Made by a program: the position numbers and the translations under genes. From a virus, in IMG/VR virus record IMGVR_UViG_3300025030_000068, positions 25,929-89,928 of that record: 64,000 nucleotides of DNA. One strand, 5' to 3'. How positions within the stretch are numbered: position 1 is the stretch's first letter; each line of letters opens with the position of its first letter. The notes under the pieces were generated by a model. The model saw only the letters and a list, made by a program, of their open reading frames with translations, had not been told where the DNA came from and did not search any database. Below are positions 3,219 to 62,291 of this stretch, piece after piece.

Positions 3219-3868
3219 GACTGGCAGCCTCTGGCGCCTTCCGGACAGCTCCCGCGCGTGCAGCCCGGTCCGGCGTCTGCGAATAATGCGGGAGCAATGC
3301 GCCTGCATGCGTTCAGCATCTCCTTCGCCATTTCCCGGATCTCCCATTGGGCACGGCTGCAGCAGCGCAGCGAGAAGAAGTGGCGCAGCTCTCTGGCGTT
3401 CATGGTCATCACCAGTTTCGTCTCGGCGGCGTTCGGGAGGACGAAACGGGCGTCTTCGGCGGGCACTCCGGCGTGGATCAATTCGTCGTAGAAAGCGAAG
3501 GCCTGCAGTTCCATGAATTCACGGTAGGCGGCCTCGTACCCGGCGGCGGAGATGCTTTCCGGGATGATGTAGTTAGCATCCTTCGTCCGGACATACCGTT
3601 GGCTCTGCTGCGAGAATGAAGCGACCCGGTGTCGCACCAGCTGGTGCGAGCAGGCCCGGCTGATTCCATCGACGGCGAAGGTGAAGCTGGCGTGCTCTGC
3701 GACCGACTCGTGTCCCATGCCGAGAACTTTCCGCAGCAGGAGAATGTCGCTGTCGGTTGTCGTGCCGGGGACAATGGCTGCTGGCATCCCGGCGCTGTAG
3801 CATACCCTTGCCGCGTAGGCGCAGACCGCTTCCGGGTCCGGGGTGTGGGTAACTAGTTGGACTTTCAT
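3215..3868 (-). CDS. thyX: FAD-dependent thymidylate synthase
   Basis: GHESVAEH and the RHRVASFSQQSQRY signature (RHRx7S); start MKVQLVTHTPDPE. Confidence 0.95.
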   Translation of the reverse strand: MKVQLVTHTPDPEAVCAYAARVCYSAGMPAAIVPGTTTDSDILLLRKVLGMGHESVAEHASFTFAVDGISRACSHQLVRHRVASFSQQSQRYVRTKDANYIIPESISAAGYEAAYREFMELQAFAFYDELIHAGVPAEDARFVLPNAAETKLVMTMNARELRHFFSLRCCSRAQWEIREMAKEMLNACRRIAPALFADAGPGCTRGSCPEGARGCQS

Positions 3869-4062
3869 GGGCTCTCCTCGAATAGTGTCATCTGCCCCTC
3901 GCAGGTCCGGGCCTTGCGTTTGCGGTCCGCTCTGGCTGCTCCGAGTATCTTGCGCAGACAGGTCTTGCCGATGCCGATATGGATCGACTCCGGGTCTGTC
4001 AGTTTTCGGTTGCAGCGTCGACAGCGAGTGCTTTCGGCTTTTGCTTTTCCCATGATGTCCAT
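3865..4062 (-). CDS. DUF6011-like zinc-binding protein
   Basis: CRRCNRKLTDPESIHIGIGKTC motif. Confidence 0.7.
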   Translation of the reverse strand: MDIMGKAKAESTRCRRCNRKLTDPESIHIGIGKTCLRKILGAARADRKRKARTCEGQMTLFEESP

Positions 4063-4472
4063 CCGTTATCCGTTCTCTTCTCGACCATCTGCCAGTATAG
4101 GAGCGCTCCGGTTTCGCGGATGTTCTCACCTTGGTATTTCTTCGTCGGGCTGGGGTCGTGGACGACGACGCCATTCATGTCCATCACCACCGCGTGGGTT
4201 TTGCCTTCAAAGTTCTTACTTGGAACCGCAGCGTCGAAGTATCCCTCGATGCTGTCTTCGAAGAGTAATTCCCGCTTCCCCGGATATCCCGACCCGCAGC
4301 ACTCGTAACCCATCGACCAGAAGAAGCACGTCCAGACGTTTTGCCATATCCATTCTGGCAGCAGGATGAAGTGCGGGACCGCTTCCAGTTCCAGATCGAA
4401 CAGGCTGGCGACGACGGCTCGCATGCAGTCTCCTCGGCCTTGGTCGTGAATTGATTGTTCGACTTTGGTCAT
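3999..4472 (-). CDS. phage hypothetical protein, possible Cys-peptidase-like fold
   Basis: Q...GDCMRA...HAVV...HDP pattern. Confidence 0.5.
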   Translation of the reverse strand: MTKVEQSIHDQGRGDCMRAVVASLFDLELEAVPHFILLPEWIWQNVWTCFFWSMGYECCGSGYPGKRELLFEDSIEGYFDAAVPSKNFEGKTHAVVMDMNGVVVHDPSPTKKYQGENIRETGALLYWQMVEKRTDNGWTSWEKQKPKALAVDAATEN

Positions 4473-4685
4473 GCTTTTCTCCCTGTGTTTTACTGGCCAG
4501 CGGCAGGGGGTACCGGAGATCACATCTCCAGCTCCCTACCACCGGCCTCCGTTTGCGACCGGATGTGGTCCTGCTCTCTCAATGAGGCCAGCAGTCGTCG
4601 CGAGGTTGAATGGTTGCGGTGCCGACGACAGCAGTTCCCGCTTCCCCTATGCCTTTGCTGTTGGGTGCCTCTGGGGGTTCTGTAT

Positions 4686-4850: not shown

Positions 4851-5413
4851 TATCCTTTGATCTCCTTGTAAATACGCAGGACGCTATCGGCGTACCGGAC
4901 TGCCGCCGGCCCTTGCCCGTTGTAGCGGATCAAGGCTTTTCTTATGCTGCCGTGCTGGCCTATCAGCGTCCGGATCACTCTCTCCGCCTGTGCTGCCTGC
5001 CCGAACACGTCCGCCGGGACATGGCCCCAATACTTCGCCCGGACTTGCCATGCGCCCTGTTCCCCAGCGGTTCCTCTCGGTGACCACGGGTTGGCGTTGC
5101 TTTCGATGGTGGCGATAGCTGCCAGCAGGAAAGGGTCAGCGCCTGCCTCGACGCACGCTGCGGCGATATCGGCGGAGCCGATAGACTTCTTTGCGTTGAG
5201 GTAGGTGATGATCCTTGACTCGACGTCCTTCTGCTTCTGTTCGTACTGTTGCTTCTCTACTTTGAGCTGTTGGATCTCGATGCGGAGGCGTGAGGTTTCC
5301 CTCTCGTTGTCTATCGTCTTGACGATGTGATAGGAGAGGGCGATCGCTGAGACAATGATTCCAATAATAATGACGTCGAGGAGCTGGTTGGTGGCATCGT
5401 TTTTCCTGTTCAC
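4850..5413 (-). CDS. membrane-anchored lytic transglycosylase (SLT domain)
   Basis: N-terminal TM helix, coiled coil, IATIES catalytic Glu, GAWQV and YNG motifs. Confidence 0.8.
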   Translation of the reverse strand: MNRKNDATNQLLDVIIIGIIVSAIALSYHIVKTIDNERETSRLRIEIQQLKVEKQQYEQKQKDVESRIITYLNAKKSIGSADIAAACVEAGADPFLLAAIATIESNANPWSPRGTAGEQGAWQVRAKYWGHVPADVFGQAAQAERVIRTLIGQHGSIRKALIRYNGQGPAAVRYADSVLRIYKEIKG

Positions 5414-5880
5414 GGTTTTCTCCTGATCGTGATTTCGAGCCCATCGACTCCGGGGACGAGGTGTGGCTGGTTCTTGTCACAGCCCATTGTGACCCATCGT
5501 TTGTGCTGTCGCTTGTGCAGGTCGCAGACGAGGTGGTTTACTCCTTCGACTTCAATCTTCTGGCCGTCCCATGCCCGGTGACCACACCTCTGGACAGCGC
5601 AGAGCGAGGGGAAAACGGGATGCTGACCGTCAGTCACCGGGTTGTTGCGTTCATAGACAATCTGTCCCCGGTTGATCCTGGCGCTGCAGTTGACGCAGAC
5701 ATATTCGACCCCCTTGTGGATGAGTCGTGGGTGGACCGCCAGCACGAGGTGCGTCACCATGAGCGTTCCGCCGCAGACGGAGCAGGTGCGGCAGCTCAGG
5801 CATCGGCGGACGCCATGCCGCTTGCACCATTGCCGGTCGGCGTTAATGCACTCCGGGTGGATGCCGTCCTTGAACGACAT
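5410..5880 (-). CDS. Cys-rich hypothetical protein
   Basis: Multiple CxxC pairs; start uncertain. Confidence 0.45.
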   Translation of the reverse strand: MSFKDGIHPECINADRQWCKRHGVRRCLSCRTCSVCGGTLMVTHLVLAVHPRLIHKGVEYVCVNCSARINRGQIVYERNNPVTDGQHPVFPSLCAVQRCGHRAWDGQKIEVEGVNHLVCDLHKRQHKRWVTMGCDKNQPHLVPGVDGLEITIRRKP

Positions 5881-5917
5881 ACGGGCGTAGCGCTGCCGCT
5901 CCCGTGGTCCCAGCGGA

Positions 5918-6532
5918 TCATCGCTTGAGTTTGATCCATTCATTGAACCGGTCGACAAGGGCGGTGAACTCCTCACGGTTGATGTCTGTGCAGCTGGCGA
6001 CGTTAAAGTGTTCCTTGAAACATGCCTTGCAAGTCTCCGGGCTATCAATACTTCTGGCTGCTGGCCAGAAAATTATCTCTCGCAAAAAATCCCAAAATCT
6101 CTCGTTGCGGAACCAGCCGACATGCAGCCCCTTGATTTCGTGCGAAGTCAGGGGGGAGCTGTTCTGTCTCTTTTCTGGTACCGGCACGTCGCTATAGCTG
6201 CGGATAGTCATGGTAATGCTGGTATCGGGAAGGGCGGTGATCATCGGGCCGATGCTCGCTTGTTGCTCGAAGCATGTCTCGAAGGAGAGAAAGAACTTTT
6301 TACCTTTGTGGGGGACGTCGACGATGAAGGCCGGCGAGATGGTGATGTTGATCTCCCCTTGTATTTCGATCTCGACCTTGCTGTCGATCAGGCCGGTCAG
6401 TTGCGAGGGGAGTTCCTTTTCTGTGGGGATTTCAACGAGGCAGCGCCATGCCTTCTGCGACCTCATCCACTTTCGTTCAACGAAGCGGCAAGGAATGACT
6501 AAATCTTTCGATATAGGGAACACTTGAGGCAT
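5918..6532 (-). CDS. hypothetical protein
   Basis: 204-aa ORF in operon orientation. Confidence 0.55.
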   Translation of the reverse strand: MPQVFPISKDLVIPCRFVERKWMRSQKAWRCLVEIPTEKELPSQLTGLIDSKVEIEIQGEINITISPAFIVDVPHKGKKFFLSFETCFEQQASIGPMITALPDTSITMTIRSYSDVPVPEKRQNSSPLTSHEIKGLHVGWFRNERFWDFLREIIFWPAARSIDSPETCKACFKEHFNVASCTDINREEFTALVDRFNEWIKLKR

Positions 6533-6615
6533 ACGCTTGCCGCTTTCTTATTTTTCCGGGCGGGGGGAGGGAACAACGGATTCAACCGCCGTCCCCGTCC
6601 CCGCTCCTGTTAGTT

Positions 6616-6858
6616 TTAGTTCTGGCACTCTTTGGCGGTACAGGTGGGACAGATAAACGCCTCGATCATCGCCGTTTGTACGTTGTTCTGCTCTGCGTAG
6701 ATCGCCTCTTCGAGATTCAACCACAGAGGTCGTTGCTCTCTGGTCATGGTTGCCAGTAGCGACTGTTCCGCGTCAGAGCGTTGCTGGCTGTTCTTTCCTC
6801 TTCCGGATTCCGCGATTTCCGAGAGCCGTTCCATGTCCTTCTTTGGGCACTGTGCCAT
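6616..6858 (-). CDS. hypothetical protein
   Basis: AGGAGG upstream, operon orientation. Confidence 0.55.
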   Translation of the reverse strand: MAQCPKKDMERLSEIAESGRGKNSQQRSDAEQSLLATMTREQRPLWLNLEEAIYAEQNNVQTAMIEAFICPTCTAKECQN

Positions 6859-7147
6859 TCCCTTTTCCTCCTATTGTTTTTCTACCGAATTTCCCGCCAA
6901 CCTGCATGCTCTCCAAGGCGGCGAGGATATGTGGCACCATGAACTTGTTCGGCTTCCCCGGTATATGCGGGAGCATTTTGCGGCGGCATAAGCGCGTGAC
7001 GTGCGTTTCGCTCCAGCCAGTCATGCGGGAGACGTCCCCGGTATCGAGCAAAAGCTGACCGATGCCGAGGAAGAGGTTGAGCCGTTCCTCCGCTTCTGGA
7101 GACGAGAGAAGAAAAGCAGTAATCTTTGCCTCAAGATGGTCCGTCAT
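6773..7147 (-). CDS. excisionase-like helix-turn-helix protein
   Basis: LLDTGDVSRMTGWSETHVTRLCRRKMLP resembles HTH_17/MerR-type HTH; close to the integrase. Confidence 0.6.
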   Translation of the reverse strand: MTDHLEAKITAFLLSSPEAEERLNLFLGIGQLLLDTGDVSRMTGWSETHVTRLCRRKMLPHIPGKPNKFMVPHILAALESMQVGGKFGRKTIGGKGNGTVPKEGHGTALGNRGIRKRKEQPATL

Positions 7148-7148
7148 G

Positions 7149-7370
7149 TCAAGCGACTTTACCGCAATCAGCCGGCTTATCGTCGGAAGGGACAAGGCCG
7201 TCCCGGCGCAGGGCCGCGACATAGGACGACACGACCGGGCCGTTACTCGTCCATTGACCCCGCAGGAACATTTTAAAGGTGTTCAGGTTGAATTTGTTCG
7301 CCCGTGCGTATCCGGCGATAGAAAACCCGCGTGCAAGTAATTTCTGTTTTGCCAGTTCGACGTTGACCAT
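7149..7370 (-). CDS. Cro/Ner-like DNA-binding protein
   Basis: 73 aa with GFSIAGYARANKFNLNTFKMFLRG HTH; first gene after the leftward promoter. Confidence 0.65.
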   Translation of the reverse strand: MVNVELAKQKLLARGFSIAGYARANKFNLNTFKMFLRGQWTSNGPVVSSYVAALRRDGLVPSDDKPADCGKVA

Positions 7371-7401
7371 GTTCTTGCCCCTTTGGTATATTTGCGAATT
7401 G

Positions 7402-7430
7402 ATAGTAACTGCTCCCGTTCCCTATGTCAA
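7402..7430 (-). promoter_or_regulatory. sigma70 promoter for the leftward operon, overlapped by the operator-like motif
   Basis: Minus strand TTGACA-17 bp-TACTAT. Confidence 0.75.
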
Positions 7431-7438
7431 AGGTTTTT

Positions 7439-8623
7439 ATGGCGAAAATTTACGCGCACAAACAGCACGGGTGGCAGTTGCGTTTCACCATCTATTTTGC
7501 TGAACAAAAGGTCGTCCGCTACCGCTTCAGCCGGTCTCGCGACGAGATGTATTCCATGCACCGGGCAGCGGAAATGCTGGAACTCGCCAGCCGTCGCTGT
7601 GACGCCTCTTTCCGTGAGGTGGAGGTCGCCGTCAACCTCGGTCTGATCTCCAGTTCCGAGGCGGTCCTGCTGACTGGCGGAAAACGATCGTCGTCCTATG
7701 ATCTTGATCTGGTCATGGAGCGCTGGTCGGTCTCCTCCTCGTTGCTCAACTCCCCCTACGGTCATGGAGTCAACCTGCGGCGTGGTGTCCGTCTGCGCCT
7801 CTGGCTGGAAGCGAACCCGATCCCGACGCTCGACGACGCTGCCGTGAAGAGATATATCCAGAGGCGCCGAGACGGGCTGCTGACCTATCCCCATCCCCGG
7901 ACCGGGATCACCGTCGTCGGCTGTTCGACCAAGACCATCACCAATGAGCTGCAGGTGCTACGGGCGATCATTGACGAGGCCGTGAAGCTCAAGATGGTCG
8001 ACATGAACGTGGCTCGGTCTGTCGATCTCCCGGTGAAGAAGTCAAAGTTTCGACGGTCCATGTCGATGGATGAGGTTTCGGCGCTCCTTGAAGCCGCCCA
8101 GCAGTCTCGGCACCTCTGTCATGGGTATGCGGTCGAGGTCTTGTCCTGTGCTGTCTATGCTGGCCTGCGGCGCTCGGAGATTCGGACCCTGCAGTGGCGC
8201 GACATCGACTTCGACAATGGTCGTATCCGGATCGTGCAGAAGGCGGTACCGGGCGAGGATGATTTTATCCCCAAGGGTGGCAATGCCGGCGTGACGACGC
8301 TGCCGGATCGCCTTGCCGAGATTCTTGAGCAGGTAGAGCGCAAGGGGGAGTGGGTCTTCGGTGGAGAGAAGCCGCTGGTTCTTACCGCGTTTTGGCAACT
8401 TTTCAAGGAGGTGGCGTCCCGTGCCGGGCTCCCCTCGGATTTGTCGCTCCATCACGCTCGCCATACCTACGGGTCGTGGCTGCTCCGCATGACCGGCGAT
8501 CTGTCGTATGTTCAGTCCGAAATGCGGCATACCGATATCAACACGACGCGGAACTACATGCATACGACCGCCTCGGAAAAACCGGCCCGGCTGCTCGACT
8601 TCGGCATCAAAAAAAAGGATTAA
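7439..8623 (+). CDS. int: tyrosine integrase
   Basis: AGLRRSE (R), PKGG (K), HHARH (HxxR), RHTDINTTRNY (H, Y); attP immediately downstream. Confidence 0.95.
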   Translation: MAKIYAHKQHGWQLRFTIYFAEQKVVRYRFSRSRDEMYSMHRAAEMLELASRRCDASFREVEVAVNLGLISSSEAVLLTGGKRSSSYDLDLVMERWSVSSSLLNSPYGHGVNLRRGVRLRLWLEANPIPTLDDAAVKRYIQRRRDGLLTYPHPRTGITVVGCSTKTITNELQVLRAIIDEAVKLKMVDMNVARSVDLPVKKSKFRRSMSMDEVSALLEAAQQSRHLCHGYAVEVLSCAVYAGLRRSEIRTLQWRDIDFDNGRIRIVQKAVPGEDDFIPKGGNAGVTTLPDRLAEILEQVERKGEWVFGGEKPLVLTAFWQLFKEVASRAGLPSDLSLHHARHTYGSWLLRMTGDLSYVQSEMRHTDINTTRNYMHTTASEKPARLLDFGIKKKD

Positions 8624-17703: not shown

Positions 17704-17954
17704 AGTGGCCGGTTGGGAAGTATAACGGCAGGCGCATTGTTGGGCTAGAGATCGACGCAAAGGTCCGCGTCAACGTCTGGTACTGGCGGCCTCGCTGGTT
17801 TACCTACACCTCTCGCATTGCCTGGCTCTGCTTCATTGTTTCGCTGGAGTGCGTCTACGACTGAAACCACCACTTAAGCGCGGTTTCTTTTCCTATATGA
17901 AGGGACGGCTGTCCCTAACTCTCATTTGCCTGCGGGCAGCAGAAAGGTTTTGCC

Positions 17955-43746: not shown

Positions 43747-44136
43747 ATGCGTTTATTGTGTGTTCTTTGTGCGTTTCTTCTGACTGTTGCTATTGCTTGT
43801 GCCGGCGAGCCGGGGAAATACATTTATCAGGGGGGGACGACAGATTCTGGCCCTGTTGCGGTTCGGACTTCGAGCCAAGAATTTGAGTATTTTTGGTACA
43901 TGAGTGGTGGTCGCTATGTCGCGGCGGCTTTTCATTCCCCCAACCATCTTGCAATCCTCCTGTCTGACTCCTCCGGAGAATCCGGCGATACTGAATTTTA
44001 TTTTGACGGGAAGACCAAGGAGGTGACTTTCCTCGATCCGGCGAACGGCGAGAGGGTTGTCTATCTTTCTCCCGGCTCCTCTGGTTATGAAATGGCGACA
44101 TCCATTTGGCGACACGCTGGTTTCCTGAGTAACTAG
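43747..44136 (+). CDS. secreted hypothetical protein (moron)
   Basis: Signal peptide MRLLCVLCAFLLTVAIACA; GGAGG RBS; antisense to the tail operon. Confidence 0.7.
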   Translation: MRLLCVLCAFLLTVAIACAGEPGKYIYQGGTTDSGPVAVRTSSQEFEYFWYMSGGRYVAAAFHSPNHLAILLSDSSGESGDTEFYFDGKTKEVTFLDPANGERVVYLSPGSSGYEMATSIWRHAGFLSN

Positions 44137-59728: not shown

Positions 59729-59875
59729 ATGCACCGACCTGTTCCAAAGCGGATCATTCGCGATCCCGTCTTCCGCTGCCACCTCTGCATGTTTACGACC
59801 AGGTGGCGGCCAGAGTATGTTAGTCATATTGTAATGCATCAGCGAGTTGCGGCAGAATCGGCGAAGACGCCATAA
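59729..59875 (+). CDS. C2H2 zinc-finger microprotein
   Basis: FRCHLCMFTTRWRPEYVSHIVMH; AAGGAG RBS; its stop codon lies in the attC1 core. Confidence 0.6.
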   Translation: MHRPVPKRIIRDPVFRCHLCMFTTRWRPEYVSHIVMHQRVAAESAKTP

Positions 59876-59925
59876 CGCCCCTGAACTGTACGGCGCAAAG
59901 CGACCGGACGAGTGATTTGTTAGAC
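59870..59925 (+). repeat. attC-like site 1
   Basis: CCATAAC...internal hairpin CGGCGC-AAA-GCGACCG...GTTAGAC. Confidence 0.75.
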
Positions 59926-59943
59926 ATCAGAACGGAGACGAGA

Positions 59944-60318
59944 ATGAGCGGATTATTTTACCTGCAAGACAAGAGGTCATACGTCGGCAATGACATGCTC
60001 TTCTGGGCAGAGAGTGGCGGATATACCACAGACTTAAGGAAATCCGAGGTGATGACCAAAGAAGAAGCCTTCGCACAAAATCGGTGTAGATCAACCGACA
60101 TACCTTGGCCGAAGGAGTATATCGACGCGAGGGCAAGACCGGCTGTCGATATGCAGTATGTGAATATAAGGGAAGCGTTGCAGGACGTTGACGGCGAATT
60201 GTATGTTGAACCTAAGCCGCCACGGGAGATTTTTAAGTGCTACCACTGTGGGAAATTTATATCTGAGCGTGAGTCTTATTCTACATGCCCTCACTGTGAC
60301 GGCAGCAATCATCATTGA
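59944..60318 (+). CDS. cassette 1: conserved phage hypothetical protein with C-terminal zinc ribbon
   Basis: FYLQDKRSYVGND..FW...GYTTDL...DIPWPK.YID; CYHC/CPHC. Confidence 0.75.
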   Translation: MSGLFYLQDKRSYVGNDMLFWAESGGYTTDLRKSEVMTKEEAFAQNRCRSTDIPWPKEYIDARARPAVDMQYVNIREALQDVDGELYVEPKPPREIFKCYHCGKFISERESYSTCPHCDGSNHH

Positions 60319-60319
60319 T

Positions 60320-60373
60320 GTCTAACGATTTCAACTAAGCGGTGCGTAGCATCCGGTTCAGTGGGTGTTATGG
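60320..60373 (+). repeat. attC-like site 2
   Basis: GTCTAAC...CGGTGC-GTA-GCATCCG...GTTATGG. Confidence 0.8.
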
Positions 60374-60389
60374 CGCGGGAGGTAGAAGG

Positions 60390-60641
60390 ATGGAAACCGA
60401 AACATTGGAACGACTCAGAAATAATATTTTGACGGCAAAAATTGAGATGGAAGAAGAACTCGAAATGAGATGGCCGAAAGGGTCGAGGGTAAACGTACTG
60501 TTGAATTGTCGGCAGACCATACCGACCACAGGAGTAGTCGTCGGCCACGATGGTCGCGGGTTTGTCCGTGTTCGGATCGACAGTGCAAAAGAACGTAGTC
60601 GGCGTGGGTGTCGGGATGTTTATTTCACTGAGATGCGTTGA
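60390..60641 (+). CDS. cassette 2: hypothetical protein
   Basis: GGAGG RBS just after the attC2 core; stop 3 bp before the attC3 core. Confidence 0.65.
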   Translation: METETLERLRNNILTAKIEMEEELEMRWPKGSRVNVLLNCRQTIPTTGVVVGHDGRGFVRVRIDSAKERSRRGCRDVYFTEMR

Positions 60642-60644
60642 GCG

Positions 60645-60749
60645 CTATAACGGGCCATGATCAGCGGACCGCGACGACAGGCCGCAACCCGCTGAGATTT
60701 TCGAGAGTAGCAGAGAGTTATTCGGTCCGCCTGGATCTTTTGGTTGTGT
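60645..60749 (+). repeat. attC-like site 3
   Basis: CTATAAC...GATCAGCGGACC / GGTCCGCCTGGATC (pairs with bulged bases)...GTTGTGT. Confidence 0.8.
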
Positions 60750-60763
60750 GCCGGTTTTGTAGG

Positions 60764-61468
60764 ATGGATGAAATGATAGATCTTCTGAACGTCGACTGTA
60801 TGGAATATCTGAAAGGCTGCGCTAACAACGCTTTTGATTTGGCGATTGTTGACCCGCCTTATGGTCTAGGTGAGGACGGCGGAACCAATAGGTGCCACGG
60901 AGTAAAGCAGAAAAACGGGACAGTGCTCCGCTGTCTTGATGGTGGATACCAGAAAAAGGCATGGGACAAGGAGACGCCGGCCCCTGAATATTTCGCCGAG
61001 TTGAAACGAGTGGCGAAGCATCAAATTATATGGGGAGTAAATTACTACCCCGTGGCGCTGCCGGGTGGCCGGATCATCTGGGACAAGGTAAACGACGGGG
61101 CCGACCAGTGCGGAGCCGAGATAGCTTACAACAGCCTGAATGAGCGGGTGGACATCGTGCGCTATATGTGGCGCGGAATGATGCAAGGGGTTTCGGTTGC
61201 TCGAGGAACTGTGCAGCAGGGCAACAAGGCACTCAACGAAAAGCGGATACACCCGACGCAGAAGCCAGTGAAGTTGTATTCCTGGCTGCTGGAAACCTAC
61301 GCCGCAAAGGGGTGGCGGGTAGTTGACACCCACCTTGGGAGCGGAAGCGCTGCAGTGGCCGCGCATTATTTCGGTTGTGATTTTGTGGGCTGCGAAATCG
61401 ACCACGATTATTACGAGGCGGCGAAGAGACGCTTTGAAGAGGACACGCGGCAAATCGCCATGTTTTGA
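60764..61468 (+). CDS. cassette 3: N6/N4 DNA methyltransferase
   Basis: IVDPPYG, IIWDK, IHPTQKP, DTHLGSGS. Confidence 0.9.
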   Translation: MDEMIDLLNVDCMEYLKGCANNAFDLAIVDPPYGLGEDGGTNRCHGVKQKNGTVLRCLDGGYQKKAWDKETPAPEYFAELKRVAKHQIIWGVNYYPVALPGGRIIWDKVNDGADQCGAEIAYNSLNERVDIVRYMWRGMMQGVSVARGTVQQGNKALNEKRIHPTQKPVKLYSWLLETYAAKGWRVVDTHLGSGSAAVAAHYFGCDFVGCEIDHDYYEAAKRRFEEDTRQIAMF

Positions 61469-61471
61469 GGC

Positions 61472-61523
61472 GCACAACGCTATAGCATCACCGGCTCCGT
61501 CCGGTGCATAGCGTTGGTTGTGC
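61472..61523 (+). repeat. attC-like site 4
   Basis: GCACAAC-GCTAT..GCA.CACCGG...CCGGTGCATAGC..-GTTGTGC. Confidence 0.8.
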
Positions 61524-61560
61524 GAGCCCTAAATTATTTTAAAATAATGTCGTTTTCCTG

Positions 61561-61589
61561 TTGACACCGTACAATGTACGGGCTATAGT
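61561..61589 (+). promoter_or_regulatory. sigma70 promoter with a palindromic operator in the spacer
   Basis: TTGACA-17 bp-TATAGT; CCGTACA-A-TGTACGG at 61567-61581. Confidence 0.85.
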
Positions 61590-61633
61590 TAAATCACAAC
61601 AGAGGAAAACAAACCCCAAACAGGAGAAACGAC

Positions 61634-61933
61634 ATGAAATACAAAATCCAGAGTCGCAAACAGGAAAATTGGTTCAGCAACGAGTTGGTGACGGAAACTG
61701 TCAGGACTGTCACCGTGCAGGGCGTGACGATGAGCATCCCGGAATCGATCGCTAGCCAGCCGCTGCAAATTCAGTGGGCGCATCAGCACGGCGGGAACAT
61801 CAAACCGGCCGGAGTGACTAACGGATATTTGGTTCTCGCTGGCCAGGCGAGAGACATGACGGACATCGGTATAAACAAATATCAAGGGGATTTTTGCCAC
61901 ATTGATGGCGAATATCTCGTAATCGAGAAATGA
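61634..61933 (+). CDS. cassette 4 gene A: hypothetical protein
   Basis: AGGAG RBS; follows a consensus promoter. Confidence 0.7.
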   Translation: MKYKIQSRKQENWFSNELVTETVRTVTVQGVTMSIPESIASQPLQIQWAHQHGGNIKPAGVTNGYLVLAGQARDMTDIGINKYQGDFCHIDGEYLVIEK

Positions 61934-61934
61934 T

Positions 61935-62111
61935 ATGACGTTGGCGGAGTTCAAGGAGGCTCAGGGCAACCTGGGCCTCACCAACGAGGCAATGGCCGAC
62001 CTGCTGTGCTGCTCTCTACGGCTGGTCGAAAAAATACGACAGGGTGAGCGGGCAGTGTCCGCCCGCACATCACGGATGATTGAACGCGAGTTACAGCAGC
62101 GCGGCGAGTAG
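61935..62111 (+). CDS. cassette 4 gene B: XRE-type HTH protein (58 aa, not in the ORF track)
   Basis: MTLAEFKEAQGNLGLTNEAMADLLCCSLRLVEKIRQGER. Confidence 0.75.
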   Translation: MTLAEFKEAQGNLGLTNEAMADLLCCSLRLVEKIRQGERAVSARTSRMIERELQQRGE

Positions 62112-62245
62112 GCCGCCCAACTACTGATTATACAGACCGTTCGGCAGTCTAACAACTTGTCTTAATAAATGGCGGATACCTAAAACAATCGCACAGTTAA
62201 TTCTGCTTCCGGCGGATAACGGAATCACGAAAGGCCGCCAATTGC

Positions 62246-62290
62246 AAAAAAGGCCCCACACCGGCACAGGGCTGGTGTGGGGCCTTTTTT
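62246..62290. terminator. bidirectional terminator
   Basis: AAAAAAGGCCCCACACCGGC-ACAGG-GCTGGTGTGGGGCCTTTTTT. Confidence 0.85.
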
Positions 62291-62291
62291 G

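Follow-up and report, generated by a model that had tools for sequence, protein, structure and literature searches.

A probable integron cassette array without an integrase gene in a temperate groundwater phage

How did a row of small genes separated by attC-like sites come to lie in the genome of a temperate groundwater phage, and which enzyme could move such genes? The window considered here is a stretch of 64,000 nucleotides, the right-hand 64 kb of the 89.9-kb IMG/VR virus record IMGVR_UViG_3300025030_000068. In it a plus-strand block (~58.8-62.29 kb) is flanked by minus-strand head genes, and the right part of this block, at 59.87-62.15 kb (59870-62153), is an array of five small genes with four attC sites between them. 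A first-pass annotation of the window had proposed an integron-like cassette array of an undescribed system, without a cognate integrase and served by a host IntI or by an unknown recombinase. The analysis reported here leads to a related answer: this is very probably a genuine integron cassette array, consisting of (i) four attC sites, (ii) four cassettes and (iii) an attI-like remnant, in which the integrase gene intI is absent, most likely through loss, and which belongs to a family of integrons in Geobacter-like (Desulfuromonadota) phages and prophages.

The identity of the sites rests on R2, a covariance model of 38 attC sites taken from other viral contigs, where they stand beside bona fide IntI genes, the window and the homologues adjacent to methyltransferase genes having been left out. 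A uniform subclass of sites was aligned, its structure was written by hand, and this seed of 11 sites was iterated to 38 from the 22 IntI loci searched, all of them on the intI strand. In the seed stem 93% of the cells are paired and eight pairs are changed on both sides, and sliding the partner lowers the pairing to 21-48%. When R2 is run over the whole window on both strands with filters off, its top four matches are the four sites of the array, all on the plus strand (Table 1); the four sites claimed at first pass are thus all present, with ends that R2 matches exactly, and the description of the locus as an integron-type array is upheld. The fifth-best match in the window has an expectation value (E) of 1.2. 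This match, at 44040-44090 on the plus strand (13 bits), lies inside a 133-aa open reading frame (ORF) and has the ends GAAC...GGTTATGA; together with a match at 17720-17745 (E 5.2) it was judged to be chance.

R2 was also run on other data sets, in every one of which its matches are strand-specific. It finds nothing in 511 kb of phage DNA, from 55 loci with a homologue of the zinc-ribbon gene of cassette A. Within 732 kb of loci with homologues of the methyltransferase of cassette C it gives eight matches on the gene strand, in L059, L060, L062, L072 and L105, and those in L059, L060, L062 and L072 fall in arrays that had been identified before the model search. Arrays of classical bacterial chromosomal integrons are matched as well, in Oryzisolibacter (10 matches), Zobellella, Shewanella and Sedimenticola; the matches all lie upstream of intI, on the strand that encodes it. 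Since R2 finds both kinds of array, the window sites share a structural family with classical attC sites. RNAalifold, applied to a plain MAFFT alignment of 28 sites, returned no consensus structure. A heuristic scan for AAC...GTT hairpins gave many false positives inside genes and was used only to collect candidates.

All four sites start with (T/C)AAC and end with GTT(A/G), and their terminal inverted boxes are present; the degenerate positions of these boxes fit RYYYAAC and GTTRRRY only loosely, as in CCATAAC and GTTATGG. The R2 alignments show the same order of parts in each: a 5' spacer of 6-8 nt, a stem, a bulged base and a 3' spacer of 4-5 nt, the bulged base lying in the 3' arm, 3-4 bp from the base of the stem. 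Site 1 has the boxes CCATAAC (5') and GTTAGAC (3'), and the former, the outermost AAC box of the array, includes the TAA stop of a 48-aa ORF of the phage backbone. Sites 1 and 2 are homologous in sequence and fold, and site 3 has a homologue upstream of the methyltransferase gene in L059. Lying within 1.7 kb at spacings of 320-830 nt, the four constitute a cluster of attC sites lacking integron integrases (CALIN), defined by Cury et al. (2016) as at least two clustered attC sites without an integron integrase nearby. In the same groundwater sample, a 3.1-kb contig of low depth (8x) is 92% identical to positions 60323-60385 of the window (attC site 2 and the leader of cassette B), and its sequence on either side of the match is unrelated. 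Relatives of these cassettes or sites are therefore in circulation in this community.

Table 1. Coordinates of the array and of the features that adjoin it (window positions; the arrow marks the crossover point)
Feature	Coordinates	Strand	Remarks
attC site 1, furthest from attI	59870-59925	+	R2 23.5 bits, E 0.0044; exact ends
Cassette A: attC site 1, 124-aa gene (59944-60318)	59876-60325	+	Ends GTTAGACATCA / TGATGTCTAAC, complementary 11/11
attC site 2	60320-60373	+	R2 23.7 bits, E 0.0039
Cassette B: attC site 2, 83-aa gene (60390-60641)	60326-60650	+	Ends complementary 9/10
attC site 3, long-loop type, 105 nt	60645-60749	+	R2 26.7 bits, E 0.00073
Cassette C: attC site 3, N6/N4 DNA methyltransferase gene	60651-61477	+	Ends complementary 9/10
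attC site 4	61472-61523	+	R2 40.0 bits, E 5e-7; R1 41.4 bits; fold z -3.9
Cassette D: attC site 4, promoter, 99-aa gene (61634-61933), 58-aa helix-turn-helix (HTH) gene (61935-62111)	61478-62120	+	Ends complementary 7/8
Terminal box CGCCCAA↓C and attI-like relic (62121-62153)	62114-62153	+	No intI after it
Terminator, strong, bidirectional	62245-62291		Closes the plus-strand unit that holds the array; 20-pair stem, then T-run

The boundaries of the cassettes can be read from their ends and from their relatives. Complementarity of the two ends of each cassette, as reported at first pass, was recomputed with the same result for A to D (11/11, 9/10, 9/10 and 7/8). The box to the left of the array (GACGCCATAAC) is complementary 9/9 to the start of cassette B, and the ends of cassette A fit each other at all 11 positions. 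Both would fit a history in which recombination between two attC sites inserted cassette A at the outermost one. The closest relatives of the methyltransferase, in the viral contigs L059 and L060, have 88% and 85% protein identity. Conserved in their alignment are GTTGTGTGCC in front of the gene and GGCACA(C/T)AAC right behind its stop codon; nucleotide similarity extends into the hairpin upstream and ends downstream at 61478/61479, at the C of AAC, a boundary that holds in three different right-hand contexts. Two other arrays contain duplicated cassettes. In L163:3287-4386 a 547-bp cassette (attC and a 154-aa gene) stands twice in tandem, the copies being perfectly identical and sharing an ATAACG junction, and L155 holds one 715-bp cassette twice, at 3782-4496 and 5228-5942, one of the copies adjoining attI. 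In both arrays the identity ends in AAC boxes, and to judge from the sequences the duplicates are likely to be footprints of IntI activity, recent activity in the case of L163. The first-pass annotation had expected variation among relatives to be bounded exactly between G and TT, which on the plus strand is between AA and C; the methyltransferase cassette (L059, L060) and the duplicates of L163 and L155 are all so bounded. The array of L155 also contains two paralogous methyltransferase cassettes, 42% identical to that of the window. In L072:2840-5000 and L062:4150-5720, four to six short cassettes surround relatives of the methyltransferase in records that have no IntI, which makes them further phage CALINs; by eye, the cassette ends of L062 and L072 are complementary at 10/10 to 12/12 positions.

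The right end of the array may carry the trace of an attI site. In the relatives that bear IntI, a conserved sequence of ~35 nt that is not an attC stands between the last AAC box and intI. In the window, the terminal box CGCCCAAC reported at first pass is indeed there, with its coordinates corrected from 62113-62120 to 62114-62121, and the attI-like sequence that follows it had been overlooked, the array itself being borne out. When 20 attI regions of loci with an IntI gene are combined in a profile, its best match in the window, on either strand, falls at 62126-62153, which is the expected position; the score is weak (10.3 bits, E 0.05). Compared by eye with the attI of L157, the relic is identical at 13 of 14 core bases. 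On the minus strand, 62127-62155 contains a promoter-like sequence, TTGTTA-17-TATAAT (10/12), which lies inside the relic, points antisense into the array and occupies the position of the classical cassette promoter, Pc; it is probably due to chance, and its TATAAT is not conserved in the attI of the relatives.

No integrase gene follows the relic. The absence of a cognate integrase, claimed for the window, extends to the whole 89.9-kb record, in which no integron integrase was found anywhere; the sole tyrosine recombinase that it encodes reaches 47 bits with the IntI model TIGR02249 (cut-off 265). A tblastn search with six IntI proteins for a relic of intI beside the array retrieved only the distant phage integrase, at 7.8-8.6 kb.

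What the window lacks is present in its relatives. In L059/L141 the order is methyltransferase cassette, attI, IntI and large terminase (phrog_15, 6e-103), and the IntI of L141 matches positions 2-314 of the 315 of TIGR02249 with 327 bits (cut-off 265). A search with this protein led to 24 viral loci (23 on other contigs), with identities of 46-74% in all but two. The same arrangement recurs in about 20 viral contigs and in prophages of Geobacterales. Among 185,579 species genomes the closest IntI proteins (50-67% identity) are from metagenome-assembled genomes (MAGs) of Geobacter, Pelobacter, Trichlorobacter, Geobacteraceae and 'Deltaproteobacteria'. Genes for terminase, portal, capsid/protease or primase stand beside intI in eight of the ten viral loci and six of the eight Geobacterales MAG loci tested; with such phage hallmark genes as its neighbours, this IntI clade is therefore carried by phages and prophages.

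The orientation of the cassette genes, which had escaped notice at first pass even as the cassette boundaries were correctly drawn, sets this family apart from the classical arrangement, in which the gene is encoded on the top strand of the attC and precedes that site; that arrangement is not seen in the window. In classical attC sites of the aadA type, two extrahelical bases lie on the stop-codon-side arm of the top strand, which corresponds to the 3' arm of the bottom strand. All phage relatives, like the window, have the extrahelical bases on the 3' arm of the coding strand; an example is L062, where the arm reads CCGCG-T-CCGGTT-G-AAA and is followed by a 5-nt spacer and GTTAGGA. The plus strand is therefore the 'bottom' strand of the integron. 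An ORF that fills the cassette is found on the strand of the attC model in 30 of 33 phage-type cassettes of the relatives and in all four of the window, compared with the opposite strand in 12 of 13 cassettes from three classical arrays; cassette D was counted by its promoter-driven plus-strand pair of genes and not by a 121-aa minus-strand ORF. A cassette is thus an attC followed by a gene, with crossover on the plus strand between AA and C of the 5' box (between G and TT on the other strand). The geometry of attC, attI and intI is classical; the genes alone are reverse-coded, reading towards attI and intI. In L176, from Sedimenticola selenatireducens, an array at 5785-8000 has a bacterial IntI 40% identical to the phage clade; the small ORFs of the cassettes upstream of it share the strand of intI, and downstream lies another integrase, of phage type. 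This may mean either that reverse coding extends beyond the phages of Geobacterales or that L176 is another prophage. Searches of the open-access literature found no description of reverse-coded cassettes or of the Geobacter-type phage IntI clade.

The base composition of the array differs from that of its surroundings. Its GC content is 0.47-0.56, with a positive AT skew, as against 0.58-0.66 and a negative skew outside, and the contrast holds even for the adjacent plus-strand genes at 58.9-59.7 kb; the earlier remark that cassette DNA is richer in A than its flanks was correct. The 48-aa backbone ORF at the left edge (59729-59875, plus strand) has a C2H2-like zinc-finger motif (CHLC...HIVMH). 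No close relative of the phage backbone was found: blastn against GenBank phages gave only short methyltransferase matches or chance matches, and a neighbouring 302-aa protein has a single relative in IMG/VR, 49% identical and non-syntenic, and none in metagenome contigs.

The cargo was described at first pass as being of phage type, and the PHROG matches and homologues in viral contigs agree with this. The 124-aa protein of cassette A combines an N-terminal part that matches phrog_2457 (E 2.6e-26) with a C-terminal zinc ribbon, and its 55 homologues in viral contigs lie outside any attC array. The methyltransferase ORF of cassette C spans 60764-61468, its conserved start being probably at 60773, and matches PF01555 (E 1.2e-16) and phrog_23224 (E 1e-57); the enzyme probably protects phage DNA from host restriction. 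Cassette D has a sigma-70-like promoter of its own at 61561-61589 (TTGACA-17-TATAGT, matching at 11 of 12 positions), and its 58-aa protein has a weak match to HTH_31. The 83-aa protein of cassette B has no Pfam or PHROG match and the 99-aa protein of cassette D no relatives in viral contigs; these two, the HTH protein and four small proteins encoded upstream have no homologues in any of the loci compared.

These features suggest how the array might be worked. In the family to which it very probably belongs, a bona fide intI stands directly after attI, usually next to genes for terminase, portal or primase. The recombinogenic bottom strand is the strand that encodes intI, crossover falls between AA and C, and the cassette genes are encoded on that same bottom strand. 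What the sites are, where the cassettes begin and end, how the genes are oriented and that intI is missing all come from the analysis itself; beyond these, we infer that excision or exchange of the window's cassettes could still take place, but only in trans, with IntI supplied by a related prophage in the same cell or by a co-infecting phage.

Several points weigh against taking 59870-62153 for a genuine integron array. The hairpin energies of sites 1-3 are no better than those of shuffled sequences (z -0.8 to +1.4), and only site 4 folds better than its shuffles (z -3.9); the earlier statement that the sites fold as imperfect hairpins therefore stands for the bulged, asymmetric stem of the model alignments, but in terms of plain energy for site 4 only. 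R2 is a home-made proxy with a rough calibration, and the E values of sites 1-3 are moderate, in the 1e-3 range. The attI relic is weak when taken alone (E 0.05), the presumed loss of intI is deduced from a comparison across the family that includes no sister genome, and no recombination event is documented for the array of the window itself. The bacterial array of L176 is also reverse-coded, so this trait is not strictly confined to phages. If the unremarkable folding energies of sites 1-3 are stressed, and with them the origin of the window in a metagenome assembly, the locus might be put down to ordinary intergenic hairpins (terminators, or elements like repetitive extragenic palindromes) with AAC and GTT ends by chance, or to an assembly chimera with a bacterial integron. 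This explanation is largely refuted and hardly credible: the model matches at these four places only in 128 kb of searched strand, the boxes are complementary to the extent listed in Table 1, those of the methyltransferase cassette are conserved in three contigs, and the cargo is of phage type. In public groundwater metagenome contigs, which are probably the source of the record, the depth of the array equals that of its flanks (~1290x), with no change across the junctions, and a single 11-kb contig spans it; the array is therefore not an assembly artefact. No joints, deletions or array variants were seen in these contigs, which drop rare variants and so are uninformative on excision.

The lack of IntI in this phage could also be taken to mean that a different recombinase moves the cassettes, the candidates being the 399-aa integrase of the phage itself (7424-8623) and an enzyme of an unknown kind. 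That is very improbable, given that the recombinase next to each of the related arrays examined scores above the curated cut-off and is a bona fide IntI, that R2 recognises classical, IntI-dependent attC arrays, and that the phage integrase, 51 kb from the array, fits only generic Xer and phage integrase models. The 'unknown recombinase' of the first-pass annotation can be dropped, since a bona fide IntI adjoins such arrays in related phages and prophages, and these, rather than a chromosomal integron of the host, are the source of the cognate enzyme, contrary to its other suggestion. A dead fossil is an appreciable, if somewhat doubtful, possibility: the cassettes would have become fixed after the loss of intI, and the sites would at most be weak terminators or RNA-stabilising hairpins. 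The missing intI of the 89.9-kb record and the weak hairpins of sites 1-3 speak for it, as do the mismatched box pairs of cassettes B-D, one each as counted here. Yet all four sites still score and retain their AAC and GTT boxes and the bulged 3' arm, the perfectly matched ends of cassette A suggest a recent insertion, relatives that bear IntI occur in the same kind of hosts, and an attC like site 2 is found in another context in the same sample.

An integron array whose intI has been lost thus remains the preferred reading of the locus, and it has wider consequences. Integrons are usually seen as gene-capture devices of bacteria, and their carriage by phages is reported only as rare cases. 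The window and its relatives make up one coherent lineage, with integrons that are the phage's own and that carry phage accessory genes such as anti-restriction methyltransferases. With a chance somewhat better than even, this is a distinct phage-borne lineage of integrons in phages of Desulfuromonadota (Geobacter, Pelobacter, Trichlorobacter), with IntI at the head of a packaging or replication module and every cassette reverse-coded. It would represent a third integron architecture, distinct from the classical and the Treponema types alike, and maintain a phage-specific pool of cassettes (methyltransferases and other accessory genes) that could be exchanged in trans with phages lacking intI. 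If the reversed orientation of the genes holds, cassettes would be expressed with the phage operon and not from Pc, and a newly inserted cassette would become the last gene of the unit instead of the first. It also implies that there can be no one-for-one swap with classical bacterial cassettes in which expression is kept. Arrays without an integrase allow the movement of cassettes in trans between co-resident phages to be tested directly.

How new is the system? Qi, Rajabal, Ghaly, Tetu and Gillings (2023, Front Microbiol, PMC9892861) describe phage-borne integrons, 17 CALINs and five methyltransferase cassettes, and they report that IntI1 recombines phage attC sites, with positive attC x attI1 assays. 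Phage integrons and CALINs with N6_N4 methyltransferase cassettes are thus already in print, and the label of an undescribed system cannot be kept. The array of the window resembles the phage CALINs of that study in being an integrase-less cluster of attC sites in a phage genome and in carrying a cassette of this methyltransferase type. The Geobacter-type phage IntI clade, an attI relic and bottom-strand cassette genes are not described in the sections of the article consulted.

With classical integrons (class 1 and the sedentary chromosomal integrons of Vibrio, Shewanella and Xanthomonas) the family has much in common: the IntI of the relatives is of the TIGR02249 type and attI lies next to the 5' end of intI; AAC and GTT boxes, an unpaired spacer, extrahelical bases on the intI-coding strand and complementary cassette ends are shared; and cassettes have been duplicated and reinserted at attI, as seen in the relatives. 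The window differs from complete classical integrons in having no intI. A classical cassette, moreover, is a gene followed by its attC, on the strand opposite to intI and expressed from Pc, whereas here the attC precedes the gene and both are on the intI strand.

The 'reverse' integron of Treponema denticola (Coleman et al. 2004; Wu et al. 2013, PMC3607928) has the order intI, attI, cassettes, and its intI is transcribed towards attI. It is like the phage family in that its intI shares one direction of transcription with the genes of its cassettes. In the phage family, however, the cassettes come first and are transcribed towards attI, and intI is transcribed away from it. The Treponema type was accordingly rejected as an explanation of the shared orientation, for there it is the integrase that is inverted and here it is the genes.

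There is also a likeness to a different kind of phage cassette, in which stem-loop motifs delimit small accessory genes that are shuffled as units. T4-type phages reportedly carry gene cassettes flanked by PeSLs (promoter-plus-stem-loop repeats), a finding attributed to Arbiol and colleagues in 2010. PeSLs are thought to act through homologous recombination, without a dedicated tyrosine recombinase, whereas the sites of the window are of the attC type and linked to IntI.

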